The notes under the pieces were generated by a model, which saw only the letters and a program-made list of their open reading frames with translations, was not told the DNA's origin and did not search any database. From positions 3,392,001-3,456,000 of the forward strand of contig OZ253462.1 of NCBI GenBank assembly GCA_965261395.1: a DNA stretch of 64,000 nt. Direction: 5' to 3'. Shown one piece after another: positions 25,558 to 52,410 of this stretch (its first letter is position 1; each line of letters begins with the position of its first letter). Source of the stretch: Candidatus Latescibacterota bacterium. Its GTDB lineage: Bacteria; Latescibacterota; UBA2968; UBA8231. The translations under genes and the position numbers were made by a program.

Positions 25558-27861
25558 TCATACCCAGAAAATGGCATTGCCCACCTTTCCGGTGAAGTAA
25601 TCGACAATCAGCCATGCGCCATTGCACAGAGCCTGTCCCGAGATCAAGCCAAGAAAAAAGGCCTGGCTGCGCGTATAGTGGCCGGCTCCTCCATACTTGA
25701 GCACCAGCTTCTTTATTAGCCAGGCCAAAAACACGCTGAACCAGACGTAGTCCATCATGCTGTTGGCCCCGATGGGAAATCCCAGCGGGTGCACCGGCCA
25801 CCAGAGCAAGCGCTGGCGCAGCCACGTCAACAGGAACATCGCGGCACCCCCCCCGACGCAAAAGCCCAACCCGACCCTGTCAATTCCAGAGGGTTCCATA
25901 TTCCTCAAGGCACTGTCGTAAACTGCGGACGGAGCTCCGTGAAAGAACCAGCTATTCAGATTGATTCCACCGTACTTGTAGCTCGTGTGGAAGATCATCC
26001 AGCACGCGCCCAGACTGCCAATTAGCAGTGCCAAGATAATACTCCAGAACGCACAGCGCCGGCTTGGGCGGCCCATCTCCTCGACCAGCTTTAGGCCGTT
26101 GGCACAGGTGGCCATGACGAATACCCGGAGACTGCCGCTCCACATATAGCCCATGGATAAATTGAACACACCGGTCGGGCCCACTAGCTGGGACCCCAAA
26201 CCCTGGATCAGCAGATCTGGGGCGATCATAGGAGTTCGCACAGCAGCCAGTCCGGCTTCGGCCACGACGCGGGTAATGCCGACAAAAATCATCATTGCAA
26301 CCACCACAAATACCAGCGAGATCCACCACGGAGTCCCCAAGGCCCACAGCCAGCCCACCATCACTAGGACGCCCCCTGCACCCCCGATCACGGCACTGCG
26401 GTAGGAGCATATCTCGTCCCCATCGTCGATATGAGGTGCCCTGCCAAGTGCTTTCAGCACGACATTTTTGAGATGTTCCCGGCCGCTCCACAAGCCCAGC
26501 ACGACCAGAGTCAGCAGGGCCCCGACCCCTTGGTAGGCCAGAAAGGGAGAATCGCTCACGCCAAAGACAATGTGTTGTTCGGATTGCAAGCCGATAGCGG
26601 GCAAAACGGCCTTCTCCATCTTGAGTAACAAGTAGAAAAACCAAATCCCGGCGGCGACATGGGTATTGATCAGGTAGGAAAATCCCAAAATCATGAAGGT
26701 TATGTGGAGCTGCAGGGTATGGGGCGGAAAGAAGGGAATGATCCAGGTGAGTTGAAAGGGGCTGAAGGCGGGATTGTAACGGTGCAGAGCGATGAGACTA
26801 CCGACGATGAACGGGATGGAACAGCCCGCCCACATAGCCCAGCTCTTGAAAAAGCCGTTGACTAGTTGGCCAGAATCTTCCCCGCGCACCATGGCCAGAG
26901 GCACCTGGGTAATGGGATAGGCCAGCCGCTCTCGCTCCACCCATTGCCGTCGCAGGATCACCGCAGTACATACCATGGCTACGTACAGGGCTAGCAGGAA
27001 AATCCCCCACCAGACCAGCGGCTCTACCCAAGCTGAGAAGGGGATGTCGTGTCCGGCCTGGGAAATGCCCTCGTAGAAGCTCCTATTGTCGTTGCCGTCG
27101 TCGACCAGGATATGGTGCTCGGGCACATGGGGCAAAAGCTTCTCCATCCACTCGTTCTCCGGCGAGGCATAGTAGAAAAGGGCGGTCAGCATGGGCAGCA
27201 GTTGCTCGCTCAACCCCATAGTGCACAGAGCTGAGACGATTAGTAGCATGAGGTAGACCAGGATGAGTTCCGACCTATTCAGCGCCAAACTGGCCCCGTC
27301 TTGCACCACCTTGACGTTGAGCAGCGCCGTAATGACGACAAAGGTGGAAAAAATCAAGCCAGGAGAATGGGGATCAAGCTCGTCGAAGGGCCAGAAGGCA
27401 TAGGCATAGGCCCCAATTAGGATAAAGGCGAAAAGCAAGGCGGAGAGAAGTCCTCTGGCCGCCAGTTTGAAGCAGAGATTGAGTACCCCGATGAGGAAGA
27501 GGAAGAGGAAGATGGCTCCCGGTGTGCTGAAATCGAGAGCCATGTACGAGCCCCGGATAACCATATTGCCGTAGGGGGCTCCAATGGCTAGGAAAAAGCT
27601 CAGAAAAGTCCCCACCCAGAACGCCCGGAAGGACAGTTTCTGCGATCTGGCCCCTTCCGCCCTGCGGCGCTCAAGGAAATGCCTGTACGTCTTGGGAATC
27701 AATTGCTGCAGATATGCACTCCTCGCCTTGGGCAAGCCCGCAACGGATTCGACGTCTCGGAGTAGATAGCCTGAGTCTTGGAACGCCACTAATCCGCCTC
27801 TACCGGCCGTAGAGGACGCTATATTGTCTCCCAAGGAACCGACCTGCCGAATCGCCGCCAT
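25558..27861 (-). CDS. Large polytopic membrane protein, DUF6785/DUF6784-like; paralog 1
   Basis: Many TM segments; GSYMALDFS, YYASPENEW, LRRQWVERERLAYP, WWPVHPLG, LKYGG...FFLGLISG shared with three paralogs in the window. Start uncertain. Confidence 0.8.
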   Translation of the reverse strand: MAAIRQVGSLGDNIASSTAGRGGLVAFQDSGYLLRDVESVAGLPKARSAYLQQLIPKTYRHFLERRRAEGARSQKLSFRAFWVGTFLSFFLAIGAPYGNMVIRGSYMALDFSTPGAIFLFLFLIGVLNLCFKLAARGLLSALLFAFILIGAYAYAFWPFDELDPHSPGLIFSTFVVITALLNVKVVQDGASLALNRSELILVYLMLLIVSALCTMGLSEQLLPMLTALFYYASPENEWMEKLLPHVPEHHILVDDGNDNRSFYEGISQAGHDIPFSAWVEPLVWWGIFLLALYVAMVCTAVILRRQWVERERLAYPITQVPLAMVRGEDSGQLVNGFFKSWAMWAGCSIPFIVGSLIALHRYNPAFSPFQLTWIIPFFPPHTLQLHITFMILGFSYLINTHVAAGIWFFYLLLKMEKAVLPAIGLQSEQHIVFGVSDSPFLAYQGVGALLTLVVLGLWSGREHLKNVVLKALGRAPHIDDGDEICSYRSAVIGGAGGVLVMVGWLWALGTPWWISLVFVVVAMMIFVGITRVVAEAGLAAVRTPMIAPDLLIQGLGSQLVGPTGVFNLSMGYMWSGSLRVFVMATCANGLKLVEEMGRPSRRCAFWSIILALLIGSLGACWMIFHTSYKYGGINLNSWFFHGAPSAVYDSALRNMEPSGIDRVGLGFCVGGGAAMFLLTWLRQRLLWWPVHPLGFPIGANSMMDYVWFSVFLAWLIKKLVLKYGGAGHYTRSQAFFLGLISGQALCNGAWLIVDYFTGKVGNAIFWV

Positions 27862-28207
27862 AAAATATAAACGTATTGCCCTAAAATACCCTCCTCTTGA
27901 GGATATACAAACCCGCCCGCAGTTCTCTAAGTTGATGTTTTGTCAATTTCTGGAAATTCTCGACACATTAGTCAATCATTTTTTGCTTGACTTTATTGTC
28001 AGTATATTTTATGGATTAGTGATTAATTATGCTCTCCGTACCTTTTTCAACTTTTCTAACCTTATATTTTTTCAATATTTTTCAAAAAGAAAGGAGGAAG
28101 ATAGAGCTGTCTTTTTTCATTGTTCCGAGCACTATTTTCGTGCTTCCTCATACGAGAAACTCTCAAGAGCGAGGAAACTGAAAATCTACTTATCGGAGGA
28201 AGAAAGC

Positions 28208-29116
28208 ATGAGACGCTTTACTCTTTTCTTTTTAATCTTGGGTTTAGGCATAGGACTTCCCAGCGATGCCAGGGCCCACATTGGAGACAATGTGTATTTG
28301 TTCTTCGAGATTGCCGATGAAGATCTCGAAGAGTTCGATTTTACGGATGGAACGATCGAGGAGTGGGAAGAGATCGTCGGGGAACCATCCTTGCTGCCGG
28401 GAAACTTCATCTTTTCTGAGACCGTAGGGGATGGAGCCCAGTACGATCCGGCCGACATGGACTTCCGGATCTGGTTGGGCTGGAACGCGACTACAGACCG
28501 TTTCTACTACGGGGTGTGGAGATCGGACAACGTCTACATCAACGAGTATGCCGGCGGCAATCCAGGCGAGATATGGCGACACGACTCCATATCCTTCAAG
28601 ATCGATGCCGATCATTCGGGCGGGCCGTATCAATTCAGTCAGGACGACTTTGAGACCGAAGAGGATTACAAACTGGCTAGGGGGTCTCATGCCCAAATGT
28701 TCAATTTTATCCCCACCTCGCCCGACGACATCATAGTCGGGCATACCACCGAAGCCGGGGAGTGGCTCGTTTCCCCGCCCTTCAGTGAATCGGGTGGGGC
28801 CGCGGTGGGCCAGAATCCCACTATCCTGATCAACGAAGCCTATATAACTGCTTTTGACAGGCTGATCTACAATGATCCGGCGGGGAGCGTGGTGTCCGAT
28901 CTTTTCCCCGGCAAAATCATCGGTTTTGAAACCTCTCCTTCCGACTTCGACACCGAGCCGACTGCGTACCGCTCTTTTTCCACCCTGTCGGGTCAGTCTG
29001 GAACCAGCGGCGAATCCAGTCGTTTTGTCGATGGGCGTCTGATCGGCGTAAGCGGAGACGATACCGCTGTCGAGAGGAACTCCTGGGGGCGCATCAAAGC
29101 TTCTTTCGAAGATTGA
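28208..29116 (+). CDS. Secreted acidic protein (possible CBM9/DOMON-like sugar-binding fold) with C-terminal SWGRIK tail
   Basis: GGAGG RBS, ATG 28208; signal peptide ending ARA; DGTIEEW, D.IS.KIDADHSGG; C-terminus DTAVERNSWGRIKASFED. Confidence 0.75.
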   Translation: MRRFTLFFLILGLGIGLPSDARAHIGDNVYLFFEIADEDLEEFDFTDGTIEEWEEIVGEPSLLPGNFIFSETVGDGAQYDPADMDFRIWLGWNATTDRFYYGVWRSDNVYINEYAGGNPGEIWRHDSISFKIDADHSGGPYQFSQDDFETEEDYKLARGSHAQMFNFIPTSPDDIIVGHTTEAGEWLVSPPFSESGGAAVGQNPTILINEAYITAFDRLIYNDPAGSVVSDLFPGKIIGFETSPSDFDTEPTAYRSFSTLSGQSGTSGESSRFVDGRLIGVSGDDTAVERNSWGRIKASFED

Positions 29117-29173
29117 ACTAGGAGCTCCAGCCCAGCAAGGCCGCCTTGGGCTCAGATACAAGCGGCTAACTAG

Positions 29174-29220
29174 AACAGTCCCAATAGCGCATGTGTAATG
29201 TGCTATTGGGACTGTTTATT
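29174..29220 (+). terminator. Long hairpin / probable terminator
   Basis: AACAGTCCCAATAGC...GCTATTGGGACTGTT followed by TATT. Confidence 0.7.
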
Positions 29221-29306
29221 ATTCCTCCAGATAGCTAATCGCCGGAGCGTTGGAGTCCGGCGGATAGTCCCCATTCATCTCCACCTTTAGACCTTTGCAC
29301 AGTGCC

Positions 29307-30119
29307 ATGGCGGGCCAATTGAACGAAAAACAGCAGTGTCAGTGGGCGACTGATGGCTACCTGTTGTTGAAAGACCTGCTTTCGCCGCTAGAGGTGAAAC
29401 GATTCGCTCGGGAAGTGGACCGGCTTTACTGCGAGCATGTGCCTCGTGATGGTCGGGTAGCCGGGAAGGGGATGGACATCTATTTTGCTATAGAAGAGAG
29501 CGAGGTGTTGATGGAACTGATCGACTACCCGCCGATCTTCGACCTAGCTCTCGAGTTGATGGGGCCCTACATCCAGTTGAGTATGGCCGAGGTTCTAGTG
29601 CGCCCTCCCAATCCCGAGGCCGCAGGCTATATCCATACCGATGGAGGACCGGGGCTGCGCCGCATTCGGGTGACCGAAAAAAGCTGGCCCCTTCAGATAA
29701 AGGTTCAATATTTCCTGACGGATGTTGCCGAGCCCTACAGCGGAAATTTCACCCTTTGCCCAGGGAGTCATTTGCTGTCATTTCCAGAGGTTCCCCCCGG
29801 CGACGAGCACCTGCCAACCGGTGTAGAGACGCCGGGAGCGGTTCAGCTCTGTGTCGCGGCGGGAGACGCGGCCGTGTTCTCCCATTCGCTCTGGCACGGC
29901 GTCGCACCGAATCGCTCGCGCCGCACTAGGAAATCGCTGATTTTCGGGTACAGCCAGTTGTTCCTCCGGTCTTTCGGCTATGACCGGCCTTCGCGGGAAC
30001 TACTGGCGCAGTGTACTCCCAGACAGCGGCGCTTGTTGGGTGACATGGGACGCGCTTGGCACCCGGGCGCTTATTTCAAGCCGCCCCAAGACCAAGTCGA
30101 ACTCATGCGAGAGAAGTAG
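29307..30119 (+). CDS. PhyH family Fe(II)/2OG dioxygenase
   Basis: IHTDGG; PGSH; AGDAAVF..SLWHGVAPN; TPRQRRLLGD tail shared with 14455-15318. Confidence 0.88.
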   Translation: MAGQLNEKQQCQWATDGYLLLKDLLSPLEVKRFAREVDRLYCEHVPRDGRVAGKGMDIYFAIEESEVLMELIDYPPIFDLALELMGPYIQLSMAEVLVRPPNPEAAGYIHTDGGPGLRRIRVTEKSWPLQIKVQYFLTDVAEPYSGNFTLCPGSHLLSFPEVPPGDEHLPTGVETPGAVQLCVAAGDAAVFSHSLWHGVAPNRSRRTRKSLIFGYSQLFLRSFGYDRPSRELLAQCTPRQRRLLGDMGRAWHPGAYFKPPQDQVELMREK

Positions 30120-30140
30120 CAGCGCCAGAGCGCGCAGTCT

Positions 30141-32126: not shown

Positions 32127-32162
32127 GCCATAGCAACCGATTGATTGCTTATAAAACCGCTT

Positions 32163-33262
32163 GAATTCAACTTGTAAGTGCAATCGCTTGGGTAGCTGGC
32201 ATAGAAAAGGCCAACTGGTATATTTTCCCTGGCCATTTCAAACGCAGCTCCCGACGGAGGCGCTTATGGGAACGTATCACCAGTTGACCGAGCATCAAAG
32301 ATACCAAATTTACGCCCTGAAGAAAGCCGGGCATGATCAGCAGTCCATCGCGGCGACGGTGGCGGTATCGCCCTCGACGATTTGTCGGGAGTTGCGGCGC
32401 AATCAAGGGCAACGCGGCTATCGTCCCGGCCAAGCCCATCACAAAGCGTTGGCGCGTCGTCGCCACAAGGCGAAGGCGACCAAGATGACGGCGGCGGTCA
32501 TCGAGCGCATCGAAGCGGGCCTGGGTCAGCAGTGGAGTCCAGAGCAGATTGCGGGTCGGCTGGCGACGACCGACGGGTTTCGATTGAGTCCGCAGCGTAT
32601 CTACCAGCACATCCAGGCGGATCGCCAGGCGGGCGGGATGTTGTATCGCCATCTGCGCCACAGTCAGAAGAAACGCAAGAAACGTTATGGAAAAGCCGAT
32701 GCCCGAGGGCAGATTAAAGGCCGCATCAGCATGGACCAGCGACCGGCCATCGTGGAGGAAAAAAGTCGCATCGGCGATTGGGAAATCGACTTGGTGATGG
32801 GACGTGCACGCACCGGGGCGCTCGTCTCGGTGGTGGAACGTCGCTCGCGCTATACCGTGCTGGGCAAAGTCCCCTCCAAACAGGCCGAGCACGTAGCGGC
32901 GGCCACCATTGCGTTGCTCGCTGCCCATAAGGGGCATACCCAGACGATTACGGCCGATAACGGCAAGGAGTTTGCCCACCATGCCACGATCAGCCAAGCG
33001 TTGGACGCGGCTGTGTATTTTGCCCATCCCTACCATGCCTGGGAGCGCGGACTCAACGAGAACACCAACGGGCTGATTCGCCAGTATGTGCCCAAAGGGA
33101 CGGCCTTGGATACGCTGTCCCAGGCGCAGGTACACCACATCATGGAGCGGCTCAATCATCGACCGCGAAAGGGCTTGGCATTTCAAACGCCGCATGAAAT
33201 CTTATGCAAGGAAACAGAAGTTCAACCCAAACATGGCGAAATTGCGCTTACGAGTTGAATCC
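32163..33262 (+). mobile_element. IS30-family element; transposase 32266-33258
   Basis: YHQLTEHQR HTH; GDWEIDLV, TITADNGKEF, WERGLNENTNGLIRQY; imperfect inverted ends ATTCAACTTGTAAGTGCAAT / ATTGCGCTTACGAGTTGAAT. Confidence 0.95.
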
Positions 33263-33264
33263 GC

Positions 33265-33518
33265 GAAATACACTACGAGGGACAGACGGAGTTTGTCGCC
33301 ACAGACCAGCAGCGCAAGCCCGTACGGCTGTTCGTCGCTTGTCCGGCGGGCCTAGAAGCTGGGGCCGATGTGCGCGTTTCGATCAGCGCGTTCCATTCCT
33401 TTTCCCGCAAGTGGACGCTTGCAGATCCTTTTGTCGAAGGGGGCGAGGGCGTGGTGGTGATCGGGCATAGGTTGGCGCGCGACTGGACCGATATGACGCG
33501 GGGCGGCGACGGTCCGGC
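33265..33518 (+). repeat. 254-bp direct repeat of 34210-34463 (5' part of the downstream hydrolase gene)
   Basis: Same-length alignment with only scattered substitutions; truncated copy lacking the start codon. Confidence 0.92.
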
Positions 33519-33647: not shown

Positions 33648-33944
33648 ATGAACTTTCATTTTGAGTGGGATGCCAATAAGGCAACTGCTAACGCGACAAA
33701 GCACAATGTGAGCTTTGAAGAAGCAGCCGCCGTGTTTCGCGATCCAGTTGCTGCTATTTTCGATGATGAAGCTCATTCAAATGAAGAACGCAGAGAGCTC
33801 ATCATTGGACACTCTGATAGGAACCACTTGCTTTTAGTATGCTTCTCTGAGCATGACGATGCCATCCGCATTATCAGTGCTCGTCAAGCAACAAGGAGGG
33901 AACGTAGAGATTATGAAGAATACCAAATCCAGCGCCGCGGATGA
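33648..33944 (+). CDS. BrnT family toxin (type II TA)
   Basis: FEWDANKATANATKHNVSFEEA...HSNEERR...IRIISARQATRRERRDYE. Confidence 0.92.
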   Translation: MNFHFEWDANKATANATKHNVSFEEAAAVFRDPVAAIFDDEAHSNEERRELIIGHSDRNHLLLVCFSEHDDAIRIISARQATRRERRDYEEYQIQRRG

Positions 33945-41167: not shown

Positions 41168-41183
41168 GGCGCAGGGGTAGTGA

Positions 41184-42317
41184 CTACTCCCAAGCCTCAA
41201 GGCTTGGGCTTCGCGGTGGTTCATCCACCTGAGATTGTAGCCCCAATCTCAGAATGTTTCGAGCGGCGTTTTCATCTCGGTCAAGGACAACTCCACAGCA
41301 GGGACAGACATGGACTCGTTCAGACAGAGCCTTACGATGTCGGTGTCCACACTGGGAGCAGTCTTGCGAGGTATAGGCCGGGTTGACGGCGACCAGCGTC
41401 CTACCAGCCTCTTCCGCTTTGTAGGACAGGCACTGCCGGAACTGCGACCATGCCGCATCGTGAATGGATTTGGAAAGACAGTGATTACGCACCATACCGT
41501 TAATAATCAGGTCTTCGACGGCGATCAGCCCGTAGTGGTTGACCAAACATCGGGCCAGTTGATGAGCAAAATCGTGCCGCCGAAAGCGTATGCGCTCATG
41601 CACTCTTGCTACCACCTTGCGAGCCTTAGCGCGGGCCGGTGTGCCCTTCTTCTGCTTGGAGAGCTTGCGCTGCGCCTTAGCCAGCACCTGCTCCTCTTGG
41701 CGAAAGAAGCGCGGGGGGGCTATCTGATCCCCATTCGACAGGGTGGCAAATTTCTCTAAGCCTACGTCAATGCCCACCGCTTCGTCGCTTTTCGGCAACG
41801 GCTGCGGCTCTACTTCGCAGACGATGGAGGCATACCACTTGCCCGTAGCCGACCGACGCACCGTGCATGTTTTGGATGTACCTTCCAGTGGACGATGTGC
41901 TTTGATACGAATGCGCCCGATTTTCCCCAAGCGCAACCCCCCCTCTTTGATCTCAAACCCATGTGCCTGCGGGTAGGTGAGGCTGTCGTAGCGACCCAAG
42001 CCCCTGAACCGGGGAAAGCCGGGCACACCGCCCACCTTGACCCTACGAAAGAATGCCTGAAACGCCAAATCAACGCGCACCGCCACGTTTTGTAGTACCT
42101 GGCTATACACCTGCGACAATGTAGGACGGTCTAACTTAAGAAACGAAAGGCGAGCTTGCTGGGCGTACAGGCTCAAGCTCTCGCCCCGATTTTGATAGGC
42201 TTGGATGCGATCTACTACAAAATGGTTGTAGAGCATTCGGCATTCCTCAAGGTGCGTCGCCAGTATTCCCGTCTGCTTGCGCGTGGGATACAATCTATAT
42301 TTGAATGCCTTACGCAT
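41184..42317 (-). mobile_element. tnpB: IS200/IS605-family TnpB RNA-guided endonuclease, no adjacent tnpA
   Basis: KAFKYRLYPT; RuvC motifs GIDVG, IAVEDL, DRDENAARNI; Zn finger CSQC/CPCC; right-end hairpin CCCAAGCC-TTGA-GGCTTGGG then AGTAGTCAC ending at 41180. Confidence 0.93.
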
Positions 42318-42641
42318 ACTTAATGGTATGCGCGTAAGACTTAACCCCGTCAAGAGGTTGTCAGGGCTAAAGCCAACCTTATATCTCAATCCTGCTTCGC
42401 CGTGCCTCTAGGCGGGCTTTACGGCCTAAAGGCCGATAGGTGAAAAAGGTGCCTAGGATATCAAGCATTGCTTGAGAAGCCATCTTAAAATTCCAGGGGT
42501 GCCTGCATGTCGTCCGATGAACTCGGTACCCCGATAGATTGCCTGCTACAGCCCGTATAGCGTGTTGGAAAGGCGGCTGGCCATCACCTATATTAGTGCC
42601 CTTTAATCCATTCAGACCACGCTGGCTGAAAGACCTACACC

Positions 42642-45600
42642 ATGGCCGAATTGACCCCTGAGACCAGCCACAACCCGGCTGTCCTGCGCCACCTCCTCGA
42701 TAACTGGCGACAACAGGCCGCCACGGCTGGGTACCGCCGCGAGCGCGACAAAGGAACCACATTCGAGCGGCTTTGCATCGCCTACCTACAGCACGACCCG
42801 ATCCAAGCTCGGCAATACGAGCGGCCCATGTCCTATTCGGATTGGGCCCAAGCACCGGAGCGGCGCGACGACCGAGTGGCCGAGCCCCTGGGATTCTACG
42901 CCGAGCCGGAGCGGTCGGCGCAAGACCTCGGTATCGACTTGGTCGCCAAGCTGCGAGACGAGGAGGGTTGGTGTGCCATTCAGTGCAAATTCCATGCAAC
43001 GGGCAGCCGCATCGCCAAGGCAGATATCGATTCGTTTTTGGCCGCTTCGGGTCATAAGGATTTCCGGCAGCGGCTGATCATCGACACGACCGGCCGTGAG
43101 TGGAACTCCCAAACGGAGGAGATGCTGCGGAAACAAGCAGTACCGGTTCGGCGGATCGGCCTGCAAGAATTACAGGCCAGCCCAATCCGTTGGCAGGACT
43201 TTGCGACCAGCAGCGAAATCCACCTCGCCGCCAAACGCACACTCTTTCCACATCAGCGCAAGGCGATGGAAGCAGTCACCGGCGGATTAGCGAACCTAGG
43301 CAGTCGCGGCAAAATGATCATGGCCTGCGGCACCGGCAAAACACTGACATCCCTCCGCATCGCCGAACAGCTCGCCGGTACCGGAGGGCGGGTTCTTTAT
43401 CTTGTGCCCAGTCTGGCGCTGATGGCGCAGACGGTGCGCGAATGGGCGCAAGACGCCAAAATTCCGCTGCGATCGTTCGCGGTGTGCTCCGACTCACAAG
43501 TTGGCAAGCGCCGGCGTCGCAGTGACGACCTCATCGACATGGACGCGCTGGATTTGGCGTTTCCGGCCAATACAGATGCGGTCCGTCTCGCCACCGTCGC
43601 GGCCCCGTCCGCGCCGGACGACCTGACCGTCGTCTTTGCCACTTACCAATCCAGCTTGGTAATCGAGGAGGCGCAGAAGGTACACGGGCTGCCCGACTTC
43701 GACCTCGTGATCTGCGACGAGGCGCACCGCACCGCCGGGGCGCTGATCGAGGGCGAAGACCCGTCGCATTTCGTCCGCATCCACAGCGACGAGCACATCC
43801 GCTGCGATCGGCGGCTCTACATGACCGCGACACAAAAGATCTATGCCGCCAGCGCACGGACCCGAGCCGGTAAATTGGCGGCGGCCCTCTGCTCAATGGA
43901 GGATGAACCCATCTACGGGCCGTTGCTCTACGAACTTACCTTCGGCGCGGCCGTGGAGCAGAGCCTGCTAGCAGATTACAAAGTGATCGTTCTGACGGTT
44001 CCGGAGGGTGCCGCGGCCCAAGCCATTCAGCGCAGTCTTGCCGAGGACGGCGAATTGAAACTCGACGACGGGGCCAAACTGCTTGGCTGCTGGCGGGCCT
44101 TGGCCAAGGTGGATGACGACCAATTTCCGGAAAACGACCGCGAAGGTATGCGCCGCGCCATCGCCTTTTGCCGCGACATCAACTCCTCCCAGCAAGTGGA
44201 GCGGCTCTTTGCCCAAGTCGCCGAGGAATACCGTGAGCATGAAGGGGCGGGCCTAACGGAATACCCGGTTTCGGCTCAGCATGTCGATGGCACCTTCAAC
44301 GCCACAAAGCGTTCGGCGGCACTGCATTGGTTGGAGGAGGCCGACCGCGGCTGCCGAGTGCTCACCAACGCCCGCTGCCTTTCCGAAGGGGTAGATGTAC
44401 CGTCATTGGACGCCATCCTCTTCATGCACCCACGCAAGAGTCAAATCGATGTGGTGCAGGCGGTGGGGCGGGTCATGCGCAAAGCCCCGGGCAAGCAGAT
44501 AGGCTATGTCGTACTGCCAGTGGTCATTCCGTCGGGCATTCAGCCGGAAGCCGCGCTCAACGACAACAAGGCTTTCGAGGTCGTCTGGCAGACGCTGAAT
44601 GCGATCCGTAGTCACGATGAGCGGTTTGAGGGGATGATAAACCGGATTAAACTGGGCGAACCGGGCGACCGCATTGGCCTTATCACCATAGCGGACTGGG
44701 AGCCGGCTGCGGCTCGGACCGGAGACGGGCCAGGCATTGGAAAAAGGGGGGCGAGGGACCCGGACACCACGCGCACCCAGCCGGAGGATTCCCAGCCGAC
44801 CTTGTTCGACGGACTGCCAGAGGCGATTAGGGCGAAAATCGTCGAGAAGTGCGGCGACCGGAAGTACTGGGACGAATGGGCCGGCGATGTCGCGGATATT
44901 GCCCGTCGGCATATCGAGCGCATCACGGCCCTCGTCGAATCCGGCGACGCCGAGCGGGAGATTTTCCAAGAGTTCGTCACCGAGTTGCGCGACGATCTAA
45001 ACGAGGGCATAACCGATGCCGACGCTATTGAAATGCTGGCGCAGCATTCGGTGACCGGGCCGGTGTTCGACGCGTTGTTCGGCGAGACGGAGTTCGTTTC
45101 GCGCAATCCGGTTAGCCAAGGCATCCAAACTGTGTTGGATGTGCTCAGGCCGGCGAACATCGACGCGGAAGCGGCTAGTCTCGACGAGTTTTACGACAGC
45201 GTCCGGCGGCGGGTGGAAGGAGCGGCTACCGACGAGGCCAAGCAAAAAATCGTCGTCGAGCTATACGACAAATTCTTCCGCAACGCCTTCCCCAACATGA
45301 CGCAGCGGCTGGGGATCGTTTATACGCCCGTGGAGATCGTTGATTTCATCATCCGCTCGGTGAACGATGTCTTGGAGGACGAATTCGGCACGACGTTGGG
45401 TTCCGAGGGCGTACATATTCTCGATCCATTCACCGGCACCGGCACGTTTATTACGCGACTGTTGCAGTCGGGCTTGATTGCACCGGAGGATTTGTCGCGC
45501 AAGTACGCTAATGAGATTCACGCTAATGAGATCGTCTTGCTGGCCTATTACATCGCGGCGGTGAATATCGAAACCGCCTATCACGAGATTGCCGGCGGGG

Positions 45601-47588
45601 ACTACAAACCGTTTGAAGGCATTTGCTTGACGGACACCTTTGAAATGCAGGAAGGCGACGATTTGCTGGCGCAGATTATGCCGGATAATTCTGGGCGGCG
45701 GACGCGACAGAAAGAGACGGATATCCGCGTGATTTTTGGGAATCCGCCGTGGTCGGCAAAACAGGAGAGTGCTAACGACAATGCGGCGAACCAAGAATAT
45801 CTGGGCTTGGATGGGCGCATTCGCGACAGTTACGCAAGACACTCTAGCGCCACCAATCTCAACATTCTTTATGACAGCTATATCCGCGCCGTCCGCTGGG
45901 CGAGCGACCGGATCGGCACAAGCGGCGTAATCGGATTTGTGACCAATGCGGGCTGGATTGATGGCAATGCGATGGACGGGATGCGGAAGTGTCTGGCCGA
46001 GGAATTCTCAAGCCTTTATGTGTTCCACCTGCGGGGGAATGCACGTACTCAAGGGGAACAGCGTCGTAAGGAAAAGGACAATGTATTCGGCTCAGGCTCC
46101 CGTGCGCCGGTCGCCATCACCATCTTCGTTAAAAATCCCGAGGCGACGGAGCACGGGCGCATCCTGTTCCGCGACATCGGCGATTATCTAGACCGCGAAG
46201 CAAAACTCGAAGCAGTCCAGCAATTCGGTAGCATTCGCGGTATAAAAGTAAAGGAGGCCGATAGCTGGACTCGAATAACGCCGGACACGAAGCATGACTG
46301 GTTAGATCAGCGAGATCCAAAATTCGACCAGTTCCCGATGATTGGCAGCAAAGATAAAGCGCAGTTAGCAGAAATACGGCTGTTTGGAAATTACTCATGC
46401 GGCGTTAAGACTAACCGGGACACTTGGTGCTATAACTCCTCACAGGACGTACTCGAAGCAAACATCCGGTCAATGATCGGCTTTTACAATTCAGAGGTAG
46501 AGCGGTTCCGGCAGGAGCGCCCCGGCACATCGCAGGAATCCATCAACGACTTCGTCAACAACGACTCGAAGAGGATTAGCTGGTCGGGAAAACTTAAGGC
46601 TGATCTCGGCTGGGAAAAACCTCTCGATTTCGAAGAGGGGTGGATCACGCCATCCATCTACCGGCCATTCACGCGACAATGCCTGTATTTTAGCCAGCGT
46701 CTAAATGAACGGGTTTACCAAATGCCGCAAATCTTCCCACATGCCGACGCGGGAAATCGCCTGATCTGCGTGCCGGGCGTAGGTGCGCGGTCCTTTTCGG
46801 TGCTAATGGTCGAGGAAATTCCCGATTTAAACATACTGGAAGCAGGAGCCCAATGCTTCCCCCTCCACTTATACAAAAAGCCCGACAGCGATGACGGTCT
46901 ATTCGGTCAGCAACCTGACGCAACCGACGCCCACGGCTATACCCGCCGAGACGCCATCACCGACGATGCGTTAGCCAAATTCCGCACCGCTTACGGTAAC
47001 ACTGTCTCCAAGCACGACATCTTCCACTACATCTACGGTCTGCTCCACGTCCCAGCATACCGCCAGCGATTCGCCAACAATCTCTCCAAAGAGCTGCCGC
47101 GTATCCCGCTCGCCGCTGACCCCGACCATTTCACTGCCCTCGTCGCTGCCGGGCACGAGTTAGGCGATCTACACGTCGGCTTCGACCGTGTTGATCCGTG
47201 GCCGCTCGAATTCGCCAACGGCAGTTGGGACGCGCCGGCCGGTACCGATCCGGCAACCTACTTCCGCGTCCAAAAGATGAAACTCGGCGGCACCCAGAAG
47301 GAACCCGACCGCACGACTCTCATCTACAACAGCAACATTACCGTTACCGGCATCCCAGACGCCGCTTGGGACTACGAAGTCAACGGCAAACCCGCCCTCA
47401 AATGGGTCATGGAGCGACAGGCCGTATCCACCCACAGAGACAGCGGCATCGTCAACGACGCCAACCACTACGCCACCGAAACCATCGGCGACCCATCCTA
47501 TCCGCTAAAACTCCTCGCCTGCGTCATCCGCGTCAGCATGGAAACCAACCGCATAGTCGAAGGACTGCCGGAGCTGGTGTGGATGTGA
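42642..47588 (+). CDS. Type ISP (LlaBIII/LlaGI-like) single-polypeptide restriction-modification enzyme
   Basis: Mrr-like nuclease GIDLVA...AIQCK; SF2 helicase MACGTGKT, DEAH, QAVGRVMR; N6-adenine MTase ILDPFTGTG, GNPPW; C-terminal target recognition region; 1648 aa. Confidence 0.92.
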   Translation: MAELTPETSHNPAVLRHLLDNWRQQAATAGYRRERDKGTTFERLCIAYLQHDPIQARQYERPMSYSDWAQAPERRDDRVAEPLGFYAEPERSAQDLGIDLVAKLRDEEGWCAIQCKFHATGSRIAKADIDSFLAASGHKDFRQRLIIDTTGREWNSQTEEMLRKQAVPVRRIGLQELQASPIRWQDFATSSEIHLAAKRTLFPHQRKAMEAVTGGLANLGSRGKMIMACGTGKTLTSLRIAEQLAGTGGRVLYLVPSLALMAQTVREWAQDAKIPLRSFAVCSDSQVGKRRRRSDDLIDMDALDLAFPANTDAVRLATVAAPSAPDDLTVVFATYQSSLVIEEAQKVHGLPDFDLVICDEAHRTAGALIEGEDPSHFVRIHSDEHIRCDRRLYMTATQKIYAASARTRAGKLAAALCSMEDEPIYGPLLYELTFGAAVEQSLLADYKVIVLTVPEGAAAQAIQRSLAEDGELKLDDGAKLLGCWRALAKVDDDQFPENDREGMRRAIAFCRDINSSQQVERLFAQVAEEYREHEGAGLTEYPVSAQHVDGTFNATKRSAALHWLEEADRGCRVLTNARCLSEGVDVPSLDAILFMHPRKSQIDVVQAVGRVMRKAPGKQIGYVVLPVVIPSGIQPEAALNDNKAFEVVWQTLNAIRSHDERFEGMINRIKLGEPGDRIGLITIADWEPAAARTGDGPGIGKRGARDPDTTRTQPEDSQPTLFDGLPEAIRAKIVEKCGDRKYWDEWAGDVADIARRHIERITALVESGDAEREIFQEFVTELRDDLNEGITDADAIEMLAQHSVTGPVFDALFGETEFVSRNPVSQGIQTVLDVLRPANIDAEAASLDEFYDSVRRRVEGAATDEAKQKIVVELYDKFFRNAFPNMTQRLGIVYTPVEIVDFIIRSVNDVLEDEFGTTLGSEGVHILDPFTGTGTFITRLLQSGLIAPEDLSRKYANEIHANEIVLLAYYIAAVNIETAYHEIAGGDYKPFEGICLTDTFEMQEGDDLLAQIMPDNSGRRTRQKETDIRVIFGNPPWSAKQESANDNAANQEYLGLDGRIRDSYARHSSATNLNILYDSYIRAVRWASDRIGTSGVIGFVTNAGWIDGNAMDGMRKCLAEEFSSLYVFHLRGNARTQGEQRRKEKDNVFGSGSRAPVAITIFVKNPEATEHGRILFRDIGDYLDREAKLEAVQQFGSIRGIKVKEADSWTRITPDTKHDWLDQRDPKFDQFPMIGSKDKAQLAEIRLFGNYSCGVKTNRDTWCYNSSQDVLEANIRSMIGFYNSEVERFRQERPGTSQESINDFVNNDSKRISWSGKLKADLGWEKPLDFEEGWITPSIYRPFTRQCLYFSQRLNERVYQMPQIFPHADAGNRLICVPGVGARSFSVLMVEEIPDLNILEAGAQCFPLHLYKKPDSDDGLFGQQPDATDAHGYTRRDAITDDALAKFRTAYGNTVSKHDIFHYIYGLLHVPAYRQRFANNLSKELPRIPLAADPDHFTALVAAGHELGDLHVGFDRVDPWPLEFANGSWDAPAGTDPATYFRVQKMKLGGTQKEPDRTTLIYNSNITVTGIPDAAWDYEVNGKPALKWVMERQAVSTHRDSGIVNDANHYATETIGDPSYPLKLLACVIRVSMETNRIVEGLPELVWM

Positions 47589-47736
47589 GGGGCGTTTTTA
47601 AAACTAGGGTTTTGGCCTCTTACTCGGCTCAAAACGTCTGGGATCGCGGGCGTCTCGCCCTCGGAAAGCGCCGGACGCCGAGGCCATTAGCTAGCCTACA
47701 AAGCAGCCCAAGGGAGTTTTTGGGCTTGGCTATACT

Positions 47737-48642
47737 ATGAGCGGAGTACTGACGCAGTACCACAAGCATAAGGGGTTGTTGCTGCTGGTGGCACCGGGGC
47801 TGGCCTTTTTCCTCGTCTTCAATTACCTGCCCATGTTAGGGCTGGTGCTGGCCTTTAAGGAGTTTCGCCTGAGCGCCGGCATCTTAGGCAGCGAGTGGAG
47901 CGGGTTGGAGAATTTCTCTCGCCTCTTTGGCGGGGCAGATTTTCCCAATGCCCTGCGCAACACGGTAGTCATCAGCTTCTTGCGCTTGCTGTTTGGCTTT
48001 TTCGCGCCGATCGCGCTAGCGCTGATGCTCAACGAGATCCGCGTTTCCTGGTACAAGCGCACCGTGCAGACGGTGACCTATATCCCCTACTTCCTCTCGT
48101 GGGTCATCTTGGGCGGCATCTTCCTGATGATTTTCTCGCAGAGCGGGCCGGCCAATCAGATTGCCCAGCTCTTCGGCGTTTCCCCGATTGAGTTCCTCAC
48201 CGACGATTTTTGGTTTATCGCGGTGGTCATCGCCACCGGGATCTGGCAGGCAGCTGGCTACGGAGCGGTGATCTACTTGGCGGCACTGGCCGGGATTTCC
48301 CCCGATCTGTACGAGGCGGCCGTCGTCGATGGGGCCGGGCGCTGGAAGCAGACCTTGCACATCACGATCCCGGGGCTGGTGCCGACGATTATCACGCTTT
48401 TCATCCTCAATCTCGGCCACGTGCTCAACGCCGGCTTCGACCAGATTTACAACATGTACAATCCCATGGTGTACGACGCGGCCGACATTATCGACACCTA
48501 TGTCCTGCGGCGAATCGTGCTGATGGACTTTGGGCTGGCCACGGGTGCCGGGCTTTTCAAATCGGTGGTTGGCTTGTTGATGGTGGTGTTGGCTAACTCG
48601 CTGGCCCGGCGGCTCAGCGGAGGGGAGCAGGGAATATGGTAA
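47737..48642 (+). CDS. Carbohydrate ABC transporter permease (LplB-like)
   Basis: GLENF; YLAALAGISPDLYEAAVVDGA; DIIDTYV. Confidence 0.92.
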   Translation: MSGVLTQYHKHKGLLLLVAPGLAFFLVFNYLPMLGLVLAFKEFRLSAGILGSEWSGLENFSRLFGGADFPNALRNTVVISFLRLLFGFFAPIALALMLNEIRVSWYKRTVQTVTYIPYFLSWVILGGIFLMIFSQSGPANQIAQLFGVSPIEFLTDDFWFIAVVIATGIWQAAGYGAVIYLAALAGISPDLYEAAVVDGAGRWKQTLHITIPGLVPTIITLFILNLGHVLNAGFDQIYNMYNPMVYDAADIIDTYVLRRIVLMDFGLATGAGLFKSVVGLLMVVLANSLARRLSGGEQGIW

Positions 48643-49514
48643 GTCGCACGCGAGGCGAGAAGGTGTTCAACGTCTTTAACCTGACGGTGTTGGGCTTGGT
48701 CGGGCTGATGGCGCTCTATCCTTTTGTGTACACGATTTCGATGTCGTTGAGCAGCGCTGCCGAGGCTATGCGCGCCAGCCTGCACCTCTACCCACGGGAC
48801 GTTTCGCTGACCTCGTACCGCATGGTGCTGTCCAACCCCGAGATCGTCACGGGGTTCACCAACTCGATCCTGCGCACGGTGTTGGGCACGGCGCTGACCC
48901 TCTTTTTTACTTGTCTGACGGCCTATCCGCTGGCGCGACGCGAGATGCCGCACCGCAGTCCGCTGCTGTTCTTGGTGCTTTTCACCATGCTCTTTAGCGG
49001 CGGCATTGTGCCCAATTATCTGCTGGTCAAAAACCTCGGTCTGATCGACTCAATATGGGCGCTGGTGCTGCCACAGATGCTGACGGCGTTTAACATTATC
49101 GTGGTCAAGAATTTCTTTCAGGCTATTCCCGAAAGCTTGGCCGAGTCGGCCAAGATCGACGGGGCCAGCGAGTTTAATATCCTCTTTAGGATCTACGTGC
49201 CTCTTTCCAAGCCAGTGCTGGCGACGATTGGGCTATGGACGGCGGTGGCGCACTGGAACCACTGGTTCGACGCCATGCTCTATATCGCGTCGGACGAGAA
49301 TCAGGTGTTGCAGACCTTTTTACAGCGGATCGTCATCGAGAACAGCGTCGAGCTGATCGAGCAGGGGCTGGTCGATCCGAACATCACCGAGTTCACGCCC
49401 GAGACGATCAAGGCAGCGACCGTGGTCGTTACCATCCTGCCGATGCTTTTGGTCTATCCGTTCGTGCAGAAGTACTTCGTGCGCGGGATCATGCTGGGCA
49501 GCGTCAAGGAGTAA
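48636..49514 (+). CDS. Carbohydrate ABC transporter permease (LplC-like)
   Basis: FSGGIVPNYL; IPESLAESAKIDGA; YPFVQKYFVRGIMLGSVKE. Confidence 0.92.
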   Translation: MVSRTRGEKVFNVFNLTVLGLVGLMALYPFVYTISMSLSSAAEAMRASLHLYPRDVSLTSYRMVLSNPEIVTGFTNSILRTVLGTALTLFFTCLTAYPLARREMPHRSPLLFLVLFTMLFSGGIVPNYLLVKNLGLIDSIWALVLPQMLTAFNIIVVKNFFQAIPESLAESAKIDGASEFNILFRIYVPLSKPVLATIGLWTAVAHWNHWFDAMLYIASDENQVLQTFLQRIVIENSVELIEQGLVDPNITEFTPETIKAATVVVTILPMLLVYPFVQKYFVRGIMLGSVKE

Positions 49515-49527
49515 ACAAGCCCGGATC

Positions 49528-50355
49528 TCACATCTGAAAGCCGCCGGCCACCAACATCGATACGCCGGTGAGGTAATCGGCTTCTTCCGAGGCGAGAAAG
49601 GCCACGGTGCGGGCCACGTCCTCGGGCGTGCCAATGCGGCCCAAGGGCGTTTGCGCTTCGAGGTCGTGGACTAGGGCAGCCGTGGTGTCGGCGTCTGGTT
49701 CGTCGCGCTGGGCGAGGCCTGCGGCGATGTAGTGGGTGCGCTCGGTGAGGGTGTTGCCCGGGCAGACGGCGTTGACGTTGATCCGGTGGGGGGCGAGCTC
49801 GCCGGCGAGGGATTGGGTAAAGCCGATGATGGCGAATTTGGATGTGCAGTACGCGGCGTAGCGAGGTATCCCTTGGCGGCCGGCCGTAGAGGACATGTTG
49901 ATTATTTTGCCGCCGTCGCCGCGGTCGATCAGGTGTCGGGCTACAGCGCGCGAGCAGAGAAAGGTGCCCTTGACGTTGACGGTTTGCACTTGGTCCCAGG
50001 CGGCTTCGCTTAGATCGACGACTGGGACGCGATCTGGCCCGGGACGCGAGCCGGCGTTGTTGACCAGTAGGTCGATGCGGCCAAAGCGGGCCAGCGCGTC
50101 TTGCACCATGCCCTCGACTTGGGTGGCATCGGATACGTCGGCCTCCACTGCGAGGGCCTGCCGTCCGGCGGCTTCGACTTCGGCGACGAGGGCGGGCAGA
50201 CCGCCCCAGCCAGACGCGCTATAGGGCTGGGCGCGCAAGTCGTTGACCACGAGGTCGCAGCCTTCGCGCGCGAGGCGCTGGCAGATGGCGCGGCCAATGC
50301 CGTGCTCGCCGCCCGCGCCGGTGACGAGGGCAACTTTGCCGTTGAGATTGTACAT
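49528..50355 (-). CDS. SDR family oxidoreductase
   Basis: VTGAGGEHGIG; LVNNAG; YCTSK (YxxxK). Confidence 0.93.
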   Translation of the reverse strand: MYNLNGKVALVTGAGGEHGIGRAICQRLAREGCDLVVNDLRAQPYSASGWGGLPALVAEVEAAGRQALAVEADVSDATQVEGMVQDALARFGRIDLLVNNAGSRPGPDRVPVVDLSEAAWDQVQTVNVKGTFLCSRAVARHLIDRGDGGKIINMSSTAGRQGIPRYAAYCTSKFAIIGFTQSLAGELAPHRINVNAVCPGNTLTERTHYIAAGLAQRDEPDADTTAALVHDLEAQTPLGRIGTPEDVARTVAFLASEEADYLTGVSMLVAGGFQM

Positions 50356-50469
50356 GAGGTTCTCCGCAGGATTAAAGAGTTGGGTGGCAGCATATATACC
50401 AGATCGGCCTCTTAGAATATGTCGATTACTTTAACTGTTCAAATTTTGACGCGCCGCAGTGGAAGACAA

Positions 50470-52410
50470 TCAGGAGACCGTGAAGCTGTTGCCGGTCATG
50501 CCGGTGAAGTAGTCAATGATAAGCCAGAACCCGGCCGAGCCGAAGCCACCTAGGACCATGCCGAGGAAGAAGGGGCGTAGCTGGGTATAGACTCGGGCAC
50601 CGCCGTACTTGAGGATGGCGGCCTTCAGCAGCCAAGCGATGAAGACCGAAAACCAGAGATGGTACATCGGCGCTGTCATGCCCAAGGTCATCCCGATGGG
50701 GTGGATCGGGAAGCCGGCGAAGCGGTTTTTGACATAGGACATGATGCCCATGAGGACCGCGCCTAGGACCGTGAAAGCCATGTGCCAGAACTGGGTCGGT
50801 TGGGGGTTGTTGAGGTTGTGGGTGATCCAGTTGCCGGTGAACGTGGGCAGACCGCTGAACTGCCAGCCGACTAGGTTGATACCGCCGTACTGGTAGGACA
50901 GTTCGACGATGGCCCAGGCAGAGCCGACTAGGGTGACGAGGATGGCTCCAACCACGGCCCAGAACAGCCGCCGTCCCTCCAGCGCCGTTTCCTGGGCTAG
51001 CTTCACGCCGGTCGCCGCCGAGGCCATCACAAAGGTGCGCACGTCCGCCGACCAAGCGAAATTCAGCCCTAGAATGGTCAGCCCTGGTGCTCCCACTAGG
51101 GAGCTGCCCAACGCATTGACCGTGAAGACGGGGGCCGCTACCGTGGCCCGGTATGAGGCTAGGCCCGTCTGGGCGATGATCCGCGTCAGCCCGATGAAGA
51201 TCACCATGGACATGGTGAGAAAGACCGCTGCCGTGAGTAGGTTTAGCCCCGCGACCAACAGCCAGACTAGCGCCAGCAGGCTGCCTAGCAGAGTGCCGAA
51301 GACAGCCGTCCGGTAGGAGAGCAATTCGCCGCGGTCGTCGACGTCCGGCGCTCCGCCGAAGGCTTTGCGCAGCACGTCCCGCAAGTGGCGGCGGCCGTGC
51401 CAGAAGCCGGCGAACACTAGGAACAACAGCGCGCCTTGGGCCATATGGGCGACGCTGGGTGAGGCTGGGTCGGAGAAGGGCTGCACCGGACCAATGCTCC
51501 AGCCGAGCATGCGCTCCAGTCCCGTCTGCAGCAGGGCGAGGAAGGCGAAAAACCAGACTCCGAACCCCACGTCTAGGCTCAGCAGATAGGAAAGGCCGAT
51601 GACCTCGAAGCGGGGCGAGCAACGCAAGTGGACCGTGTTCTGTAAGATTGGGATGGAAGCGTCTAGGTTGATTGGTGGGATGAAGTGGTAGTACTTGTGC
51701 AGCGCTTCCAGACCGTTGATCAGGAAGGGAATCAGGAAGCCAATCCACATCAAGTAGTTGCTAAAGAAAGGCGGCAGCTTCCTATCCGGCTCCTCGGTGC
51801 TCATCTCTAGGGGAAGCACGGCCATGGGAAAGAGCAGCTTCTCGCGCTCGACCCACTGTTTGCGCAGGATGACCAGCAAGCAGAGCGTGACGAAATAGAC
51901 GGTGACCGCGAAAAGACTCCAGATCAGCAGCGGCGGGCCCCAGGCACCCCAGGAGACCGGCTCGCTGCGGGTGCCGCCCTCGAAGAGCTTCCACACCGCG
52001 TCCCGGCCATCGGGCACCAGCCACGGTGGGATATGTGGCTGGATTAGCTGAGCCCATTCGTTTTCGGGCGTGGCGTAGTAGAAGAAGCCGCCCAGTAGGG
52101 GGATCAGGTTGAGGGTGAAGCCCCAAGAGGGGATGGCCGCGGCGACGATCATCATTATATAGATGGTGACCAACTCGCCGCGTCGCAGGGCCGGCCCGCC
52201 GAGCAGGCGGACCAGCGGATTGAGCAGCAAAGTAAGCGGCAGGAAGAGGAAGATCGCCGCACCGGTCGAGAAGTCGGCACCCATGGGTGAGCCGCGCAGT
52301 ACCAGCACGCCGAAGGGCTCGCCGGCGGCGATGATGAAGCTGCCAAGCAGCCCTAGGAGCACTGCCCGTCTGGATACGCCGTGACCGGCCTTTGCAGGGG
52401 CTTGTGCCAT
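50470..52410 (-). CDS. DUF6785/DUF6784-like membrane protein; paralog 4
   Basis: GSPMGADFS, YYATPENEW, LRKQWVEREKLLFP, FPIHPIG, LKYGG...RPFFLGMVLG. Confidence 0.82.
   Translation of the reverse strand: MAQAPAKAGHGVSRRAVLLGLLGSFIIAAGEPFGVLVLRGSPMGADFSTGAAIFLFLPLTLLLNPLVRLLGGPALRRGELVTIYIMMIVAAAIPSWGFTLNLIPLLGGFFYYATPENEWAQLIQPHIPPWLVPDGRDAVWKLFEGGTRSEPVSWGAWGPPLLIWSLFAVTVYFVTLCLLVILRKQWVEREKLLFPMAVLPLEMSTEEPDRKLPPFFSNYLMWIGFLIPFLINGLEALHKYYHFIPPINLDASIPILQNTVHLRCSPRFEVIGLSYLLSLDVGFGVWFFAFLALLQTGLERMLGWSIGPVQPFSDPASPSVAHMAQGALLFLVFAGFWHGRRHLRDVLRKAFGGAPDVDDRGELLSYRTAVFGTLLGSLLALVWLLVAGLNLLTAAVFLTMSMVIFIGLTRIIAQTGLASYRATVAAPVFTVNALGSSLVGAPGLTILGLNFAWSADVRTFVMASAATGVKLAQETALEGRRLFWAVVGAILVTLVGSAWAIVELSYQYGGINLVGWQFSGLPTFTGNWITHNLNNPQPTQFWHMAFTVLGAVLMGIMSYVKNRFAGFPIHPIGMTLGMTAPMYHLWFSVFIAWLLKAAILKYGGARVYTQLRPFFLGMVLGGFGSAGFWLIIDYFTGMTGNSFTVS

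Follow-up and report, generated by a model that had tools for sequence, protein, structure and literature searches.

In a 64,000-nucleotide stretch of a Candidatus Latescibacterota genome (assembly GCA_965261395.1, contig OZ253462.1, positions 3,392,001 to 3,456,000; hereafter the window), four genes, P0001 to P0004, encode large membrane proteins that carry the Pfam domains DUF6785 and DUF6784. We consider it likely that this family is a divergent branch of the OPT superfamily, composed of cation-coupled, elevator-type importers of small organic solutes. The homology of the copies, their predicted fold, the expansion of the family, its gene contexts and its presence in RNA-library contigs were all observed, and from them we infer transport, its direction, the coupling ion and the substrates. 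The family is probably the main nutrient-importer family of the organism.

Homology and predicted fold of the four proteins

All four genes are intact open frames, and in each product DUF6785 (PF20581) is followed by DUF6784 (PF20580). The E-values for PF20581 were 8.1e-112 (P0001), 8.4e-128 (P0002), 7.1e-88 (P0003) and 1.2e-121 (P0004), with scores of 295.7-427.4 bits against a Pfam gathering cut-off of 25; those for PF20580 were, in the same order, 6e-28, 9.7e-31, 1.7e-19 and 9.5e-27, with scores of 70.3-106.4 bits against a cut-off of 26.4. In the alignment, P0002, P0003 and P0004 were 44%, 28% and 39% identical to P0001, respectively. Given Pfam matches above the cut-offs and identities of 28-44%, these sequence comparisons indicate that the four copies are homologs and not a product of chance similarity. 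The original prediction had described four paralogs of one uncharacterised large membrane protein resembling DUF6785/DUF6784 proteins, and this description holds. Every motif that it listed was also recovered in the alignment: YYAxxENxW, QWxxxE(R/K)Lx(Y/F)P, PxHPxG and YGG...FLGx(I/V/L)xG are present in all four copies, and GSxMxxDFS and GINL in three, both being missing from P0003, the most divergent of the four. P0001 is a long form: it is extended at the N-terminus and has about 60 inserted residues, which contain two extra hydrophobic helices. A search with P0002 returned 5332 cluster representatives at E <= 0.001, of which 1274 reached E <= 1e-30. In public records the proteins are named only 'hypothetical protein' or 'DUF6785 family protein', and no paper came up in a full-text literature search on the names DUF6785 and DUF6784 and on the Pfam accessions of both domains.

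Similarity to a transporter fold had been set beforehand as a test of the prediction that these proteins form a secondary transporter family. We modelled P0002 with AlphaFold2, without templates, from a 97-sequence alignment (predicted local distance difference test score, pLDDT, 95.1; predicted template-modelling score, pTM, 0.94). When this model was compared by Foldseek with 350,542 PDB chains, two matches were obtained at E <= 0.001, both of them to the barley iron-chelate transporter Yellow Stripe 1 (YS1; 7wsr_A, E 7.7e-10; 7wst_A, E 2.4e-9), with template-modelling (TM) scores of 0.64-0.71, while all other TM scores were about 0.1. The predicted model of P0003 likewise has the OPT/YSL fold; both models match 7wsr over nearly the whole length and match no other structure, and the YS1 architecture of core and scaffold domains extends over the whole of the predicted proteins. 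The YS1 structure was released in 2022, after the AlphaFold2 training data, and the P0002 model is therefore not a memory of it. We also considered a GT-C glycosyltransferase or polymerase fold and set it aside: none of the matches listed for the two models was such a chain, although the listing does not formally exclude further families, and YS1 is matched over almost the entire protein. The YS1 paper (PMC9691689) states that no structural homolog was found for either of the two YS1 domains, and proposes a proton-coupled elevator mechanism; the match of the family is thus to a distinctive fold. Besides short re-entrant elements, about 16 long helices can be counted in the family model, several of these features running together in a crude hydropathy scan; for OPTs, an excerpt of PMC3061005 gives 16 or 17 transmembrane segments.

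The original prediction had further pointed to echoes of OPT/YSL motifs. We compared the 97-sequence family alignment with 10 canonical OPTs from genomes of the same phylum by hhalign, and obtained 519 colinear columns (E 9.3e-4) at a probability of only 22.5%. In this alignment both segments fall on canonical bacterial counterparts, LRRQW..ERLxFP on PLRRxLIVxEHxxLPYPEG and FFLGLIAGQ on SSGLIAGDAL, so that the echoes reappear at the level of profiles; the sequence link between the family and the OPTs appears to lie at the edge of detection. Together, the predicted YS1 fold and the motif alignment support the reading as a secondary transporter family. By sequence-level tests the family falls outside the OPTs, but its predicted models have the OPT fold. 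Several conserved polar residues (R28, E91, R195, Q197, E202, R352, H354, R422, H585 and K611 in P0002 numbering) could line a cavity or take part in ion coupling.

Expansion of the family and gene neighbourhoods

The window's own genome, a single 6.55-Mb contig, contains 56 PF20581 matches, 55 of them without an internal stop, and none of 14 control genomes has any. These 56 matches compare with 20 for MFS_1, 10 for SSF and 47 for ABC permeases in the same genome, in which the Pfam search found no canonical OPT above threshold. By all-against-all BLAST clustering, the family is the fourth largest paralog cluster. The paralogs are old, with a median tip length of 0.42 in a quick tree, where each of the four window copies belongs to a different clade. 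Among the 61 sampled genomes of the phylum, 47 have the family and one family of 13 genomes has no copy; canonical OPTs were found in 18 of the 61, as a single match in 17 and as two fragmentary matches in one. All 24 other genomes of the window's class have DUF6785 proteins, with 5-56 first-look candidates each (at least 21 in 21 of the 24; the best 20 per genome were scored), and a canonical OPT occurs in one of the 24. The records of related loci are titled Candidatus Latescibacterota, in some cases Gemmatimonadota, and in a few Handelsmanbacteria, Planctomycetota or Chloroflexota. The expansion is class-wide in Latescibacterota-labelled genomes, and the predicted lineage expansion is thus borne out: this genome has 56 copies, and genomes across the class have tens each.

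One broken copy (L037:7525-8804; G000 1395530-1396809) lacks the N-terminal 200 profile positions, and its DUF6784 part lies in a separate open reading frame (ORF) beyond a TAG stop. Other families are also extremely expanded; the BLAST clusters include 126 secreted proteins with CHU_C/FlgD_ig tails, 74 GFO/IDH/MocA-like and 71 MR_MLE-like proteins, and further clusters in the own genome comprise 48 FG-GAP/UnbV_ASPIC proteins and 41 sulfatases. PhyH matches number at least 152.

We analyzed the neighbourhoods of all 56 copies on gene calls from our own simple codon-usage model, which is crude and gave 4995 genes that were clustered by BLAST. Of the 308 genes that lie no more than three genes from a copy, 295 entered the Pfam scan, the others being ten outside the loci and three window ORFs, and enrichment within three genes of a copy was calculated by the hypergeometric test for about 40 clusters, with p uncorrected. 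Operon partners are for the most part cytoplasmic enzymes of catabolic type (PhyH, aldo-keto reductases, GFO/IDH, signal-peptide-less sulfatases). Tight same-strand partners (<=60 bp) form two groups. The first consists of cytoplasmic-type enzymes, namely PhyH, aldo-keto reductase, GFO/IDH/MocA, SDR, HpcH aldolase, amidohydrolase_2, isochorismatase, beta-eliminating lyase, class IV aminotransferase and also sulfatases in which the catalytic domain begins within 5-20 residues of the N-terminus; none of the catabolic-type partner enzymes has a signal peptide. The second consists of secreted or envelope proteins: FG-GAP/UnbV_ASPIC, Kelch, ThuA-CBM6, unknown secreted, TPR, fused MFS/spermidine-synthase and giant FtsX-like proteins. 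The predicted enrichment of catabolic genes was seen, modestly, for the aldo-keto reductase cluster (7 of 23 members near a copy, 4.9-fold, p 3.5e-4), one PhyH cluster (10 of 48, 3.3-fold, p 6e-4) and the amidohydrolase_2 cluster (3 of 3, 16-fold, p 2.4e-4). Also enriched were the giant FtsX-like cluster (5 of 5, 16-fold, p 9e-7), the FG-GAP/UnbV cluster (14 of 48, 4.7-fold, p 7e-7) and the CBM9-like secreted cluster (6 of 29, 3.3-fold, p 0.008).

The direction of transport could be read the other way, with the proteins acting as exporters or flippases of oligosaccharide, lipid-linked or secondary-metabolite cargo. Such a role would suit the many copies that lie beside secreted FG-GAP/UnbV, Kelch, CBM-bearing and type IX secretion system (T9SS)-tagged (CHU_C/FlgD_ig) proteins, the fused MFS/spermidine-synthase membrane proteins among the neighbours, and the apparent non-conservation, in a low-confidence alignment region, of the proposed proton-binding Asp pair of YS1. 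However, the tight partners are cytoplasmic catabolic-type enzymes, signal-peptide-less sulfatases among them, and such enzymes require an intracellular substrate; beside the four window copies no biosynthetic gene cluster was seen; and, according to an excerpt of PMC3061005, the functionally characterised OPTs are all cation:solute uptake systems. We therefore regard outward transport as very improbable and retain import.

The association with FtsX-like proteins has a wider bearing. All five stand-alone giant FtsX/M28 proteins (1468-1550 aa) are encoded within three genes of a copy, four of them directly adjacent, and one protein of 2124 aa in the own genome combines FtsX-like, DUF6785 and DUF6784 parts; fusions in other organisms include P0014 (2120 aa, MacB_PCD) and P0126. 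Among related loci, a giant FtsX-like gene directly follows the DUF6785 gene in 33 of the 71 with at least 1.5 kb downstream, a figure biased to the P0001 clade by the choice of loci for their likeness to P0001, and a third gene then follows in 30 of the 59 with at least 5.5 kb downstream. We take this third gene to be a divergent OPT, because relatives at 57-61% identity carry PF03169 and its NCBI name is 'peptide transporter'. The complete module occurs in region L162 (Table 1) and also in the L049 and L063 regions, the FtsX/M28 protein having about 1470-1550 aa; in L162 the divergent OPT has 1063 aa, PDZ domains and a weak S41-peptidase match. The own genome contains four divergent 'peptide transporter' genes (cluster106). 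Profile comparison of the DUF6785 family with the FtsX-linked 806-aa and 1063-aa proteins was weak (probability 17% and 9%, respectively). P0001 belongs to a clade with L059, L032 and L041 (support 100), the other members of which are linked to giant FtsX/M28 proteins, and it shares 63% identity with the triad copy L059. The excerpt of PMC3061005 reports OPTs that contain fused protease domains. For the P0001 clade, the triad suggests peptide harvesting.

From this material one might conclude that the copies are not autonomous importers but subunits of an envelope machine built around giant FtsX/MacB-like proteins, which could, for example, handle what the M28 peptidase domain of the machine sets free, be it peptides or envelope material; in that case the window copies would be orphaned or re-used subunits. 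The proximity, the fusions here and elsewhere, the gene order in related loci and the clade of P0001 are all in keeping with this proposal. Nevertheless, none of the four window copies has an FtsX-like neighbour, only 6 of the 56 own-genome copies are linked or fused to FtsX and these are scattered over the paralog tree, the gene-order count carries the bias described above, and an OPT-fold subunit inside a complex would most simply be its importing part. We consider the machine-subunit proposal unlikely, and autonomous import the better explanation.

Gene contexts in the window

The four contexts given in the original prediction, a PhyH dioxygenase, a solute-binding protein (SBP), a sulfatase remnant with an SDR gene, and a divergent secreted gene, were all found as described (Table 1).

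Table 1. Positions of the DUF6785 genes, their neighbours in the window and the FtsX/M28 module of region L162
Feature	Position	Strand	Remarks
P0001	25558-27861	-	767 aa
P0002	30141-32126	+	661 aa
P0003	36200-38098 (or 38095)	-	632 aa
P0004	50470-52410	-	646 aa; between sulfatase remnant and SDR gene
Secreted protein, 29-member CBM9-like paralog family	27824-29116	+	Divergent from P0001; start codon uncertain
PhyH-family dioxygenase	29295-30119	+	Ends 21 bp before P0002; no signal peptide
SBP (SBP_bac_1/SBP_bac_8)	38095-39396	-	Sugar type; signal peptide; translationally coupled to P0003
Partner ABC permease	39465-40283	-	Upstream of SBP gene, same operon direction
ABC importer permease (BPD_transp_1)	40280-41224	-	Upstream of SBP gene, same operon direction
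Second ABC importer permease pair (BPD_transp_1)	47737-49514	+	Adjoins SDR/P0004 unit
SDR gene	49528-50355	-	114 bp downstream of P0004, same strand
Sulfatase C-terminal remnant	52411-52869	-	Directly upstream of P0004; last ~69 codons recognisable
GFO/IDH/MocA oxidoreductase and xylose-isomerase-like TIM-barrel	52502-54812	+	Divergent from P0004; kept beside it in L088 and L089
L162 (G000 4264000-4279500), long-form DUF6785	12165-14321	-	Position in L162
L162, giant FtsX/M28	7768-12174	-	Position in L162
L162, divergent OPT	4577-7768	-	Position in L162

The ORF of the secreted protein divergent from P0001 had no Pfam match; the N-termini of its paralogs are signal-peptide-like, and CBM9_1 is present in 7 of 45 relatives. 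The window neighbours of P0001 are not shared, at >=40% identity, by P0001-like loci of about 60% identity, and are kept only in the near-identical genome L080. At a distance of 3.7 kb from P0001 there is a sulfatase gene (20364-21824), which shares its operon with genes for an aldo-keto reductase and a GFO/IDH protein; the encoded sulfatase, with a catalytic domain from residue 5 and no signal peptide, is presumably cytoplasmic.

RNA-library contigs from two studies, comprising four runs, were placed on 25.0-45.0 kb of the window. In all four runs a single contig extends from inside the CBM9-like gene through the PhyH gene into the first 160-950 bases of P0002. The word depth over the CBM9-like and PhyH contig (28060-30320) was 67-256, far above all else in 25-45 kb, and that over the rest of P0002 was 3-10. 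An insertion sequence (IS) element with HTH_38 and rve integrase domains (32161-33258) begins 34 bp past P0002. It belongs to a five-member cluster in the genome, one member of which (L075:11904-13001) has identical Pfam scores, and in several runs the contigs have loose, unlike ends at 32159/32160 and 33265-33267, as if from related strains that lack the element. A BrnT gene (33648-33944) lies 1.5 kb beyond P0002, and toxin-antitoxin genes (BrnT/BrnA, PIN/MazE, PemK/MazE) occur within three genes of 4 of the 52 other own-genome copies (L032, L041, L049 and L055); this proximity is probably coincidental.

At P0003, the stop codon of the SBP gene overlaps the start codon of the transporter gene in the string GTGATG, and contigs bridge this junction in all four runs at a low depth of 3-11. 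This arrangement raises the question of whether P0003, unlike the other copies, is a binding-protein-dependent secondary transporter of the TRAP or TTT kind that is fed by the coupled SBP. However, the SBP is of the ABC sugar type, and the two ABC permease genes ahead of it in the operon explain it without P0003. In addition, the nearest paralog (the L052 copy, 61% identical) has no SBP neighbour, and no SBP was found in the 1.5-kb flanks of relatives with 57-60% identity; a search of 30 other genomes of the class gave no ortholog with more than 62% identity. We judge SBP dependence of P0003 quite unlikely. Convergent to P0003 is a gene for a CehA/McbA-family metallohydrolase with a DUF3604-like segment (34195-36012), and DUF3604-like proteins are also found near two other copies (L060:2572-4785 and L074:10595-11632).

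In the relatives L086-L090, a gap of only about 130-200 bp separates the counterparts of the permease genes 40280-41224 and 47737-48642, and because these genes nearly adjoin there, the region 41184-47588 is an insertion in the window's genome. Between the two ABC permease operons the window has an IS605 OrfB/TnpB-like gene (41184-42389, minus strand) and a gene for a Type ISP restriction-modification enzyme of 1648 aa (42642-47588, plus strand).

The sulfatase remnant upstream of P0004 had a weak SGSH_C match (E 1.6e-5, below the cut-off); over a stretch of 69 residues it shares 88% identity with the C-terminal end of an intact sulfatase of 506 aa in the relative L088. That sulfatase has no signal peptide, and its gene lies 53 bp upstream of a P0004 ortholog with 96% identity. 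Since relatives keep an intact 506-aa gene at this position, the window has lost most of the sulfatase gene, and, as reconstructed from these sequences, the ancestral operon of P0004 ran from a signal-peptide-less sulfatase through the transporter to the SDR. The 36-54 kb part of the window has the look of a single carbohydrate-type locus: it combines two of the paralogs and the sulfatase remnant with two divergent CUT1-type ABC permease pairs, an SBP, an SDR, a GFO/IDH gene and a xylose-isomerase-like TIM-barrel gene.

Assessment and comparison with known systems

A number of results weigh against the import reading. None of the four proteins matched PF03169 at E <= 0.1 (P0002 and P0003 had no match even at E <= 1), an NCBIfam scan at E <= 0.01 gave no family for them, TIGR00728 (OPT) included, and a PDB sequence search with a profile of the four paralogs gave no true match, only a spurious one at E 2.3. 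NPG and KIPPR, two OPT motifs that the excerpt of PMC3061005 cites from Koh 2002, occur neither in the four translations nor in the family consensus. In addition to the low hhalign probability given above, the canonical segment GDxxQDLK aligns, with low confidence, to a family segment that conserves only a Lys. Judging by its spacing, we take GDxxQDLK to correspond to the proposed proton-binding Asp pair of YS1, and conserved counterparts of the proposed proton-site acids Asp446/490/494 were not seen in this low-confidence region. Because GDxxQDLK falls where only a Lys is conserved, the coupling chemistry of the family may differ from that of YS1. A fold shared with YS1 is no proof of a shared function.

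The neighbourhood and RNA data have limits of the same kind. The enrichments are modest, with p uncorrected and gene calls crude; PhyH adjacency has to be set against the very high background of this family in the genome; and a large share of the copies lie beside secreted or envelope proteins, as the FG-GAP/UnbV and FtsX counts indicate, and not beside enzymes. The MR_MLE cluster (2 of 71 directly adjacent, 1.3-fold, and outside the 25 best-ranked clusters within three genes) was not significantly enriched. Nor was the sulfatase cluster as a whole (5 of 41 near a copy, 2-fold), and of the predicted import of sulfated compounds there remains circumstantial support at P0004 from its ancestral sulfatase operon. 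P0001 is almost without contig cover and parts of P0003 are uncovered, although this is not evidence of silence; the RNA-library contigs are weak support, as they cannot prove transcription, strand or a single transcript.

With these points taken into account, we propose the following mechanism. DUF6785 and DUF6784 together would represent a deeply diverged, so far unrecognised prokaryotic branch of the OPT/YSL superfamily. By analogy with every characterised OPT, the protein would be a secondary importer that is cation-coupled, and likely proton-coupled, in which an elevator-like movement of the core domain brings a small organic solute across the membrane. Each of the 56 old paralogs would presumably be tuned to a different solute, and the paralogs would often share an operon with cytoplasmic enzymes that process the imported solute, such as the PhyH dioxygenase at P0002 or, ancestrally, the signal-peptide-less sulfatase and the SDR at P0004.

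A broader proposal, which we put forward tentatively and consider doubtful as a whole, is that a new major OPT clade which has given up peptides and metal chelates is the dominant Latescibacterota importer of modified small organics, those derived from carbohydrates included (such as sulfated or oxidised sugars, on which cytoplasmic sulfatases, PhyH dioxygenases and reductases would then act), and that one of its clades also works in a previously undescribed tripartite or fused inner-membrane machine with a giant FtsX/MacB-like M28-peptidase protein and a second OPT, of canonical type.

The predicted OPT-fold placement gives a testable function to a large family that had none assigned. The uncultured phylum is known as a degrader of complex organic matter, and among its transporter-like families this one seems to be the largest. 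A literature search on Latescibacteria with OPT, sulfatase or PhyH gave nothing relevant in the titles and abstract openings of the 12 top-ranked of 39 matching papers. If the reading is true, OPT-fold transporters, whose bacterial members have been little studied, would gain a wider range of substrates and contexts, and the 56 natural paralogs with their different operon partners would be a resource on how specificity is encoded in an elevator fold. A possible new composite machine is suggested by the fusions together with the conserved FtsX/M28 triad.

Among known systems, the closest in predicted structure is YS1/YSL of plants (OPT, TC 2.A.67; 7wsr/7wst). Its members have a similar length and helix count, and two elements can be aligned by way of the bacterial OPTs: the arginine-rich segment RxxW/L..E.L.FP and, in C-terminal position, the GLI(A/S/L)G helix. 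However, identity to YS1 is only 10-14%, with no similarity at the level of hidden Markov models, and the conserved acids at its proposed proton site were not found in the family, in an alignment of low confidence. Unlike YS1/YSL, the DUF6785 proteins are bacterial and reach 56 paralogs per genome, and whereas YS1/YSL proteins carry metal chelates, the gene contexts here point to organic catabolic substrates.

Canonical prokaryotic OPTs (PF03169, TIGR00728) would have the same superfamily fold, as judged through YS1, and their profiles align colinearly with that of the family at the low probability noted above. The association of OPTs with peptidases, known from fused proteases (excerpt of PMC3061005), recurs here in the FtsX/M28 triad. 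The DUF6785 family differs from them in lacking a PF03169 or TIGR00728 match and the NPG and KIPPR motifs, and also in distribution, given that canonical OPTs are nearly always single-copy and confined to 18 of the 61 phylum genomes, whereas DUF6785 proteins occur in 47 and in tens of copies within the window's class.

In the way they are deployed, the DUF6785 proteins resemble the TRAP, SusCD and CUT1 ABC systems, which are expanded, substrate-specific uptake families in polysaccharide degraders; the analogy is functional only. In both cases many paralogs are placed in different catabolic clusters. However, the fold and the energy coupling of those systems are unrelated, and the DUF6785 copies have no consistently attached binding protein or outer-membrane partner.

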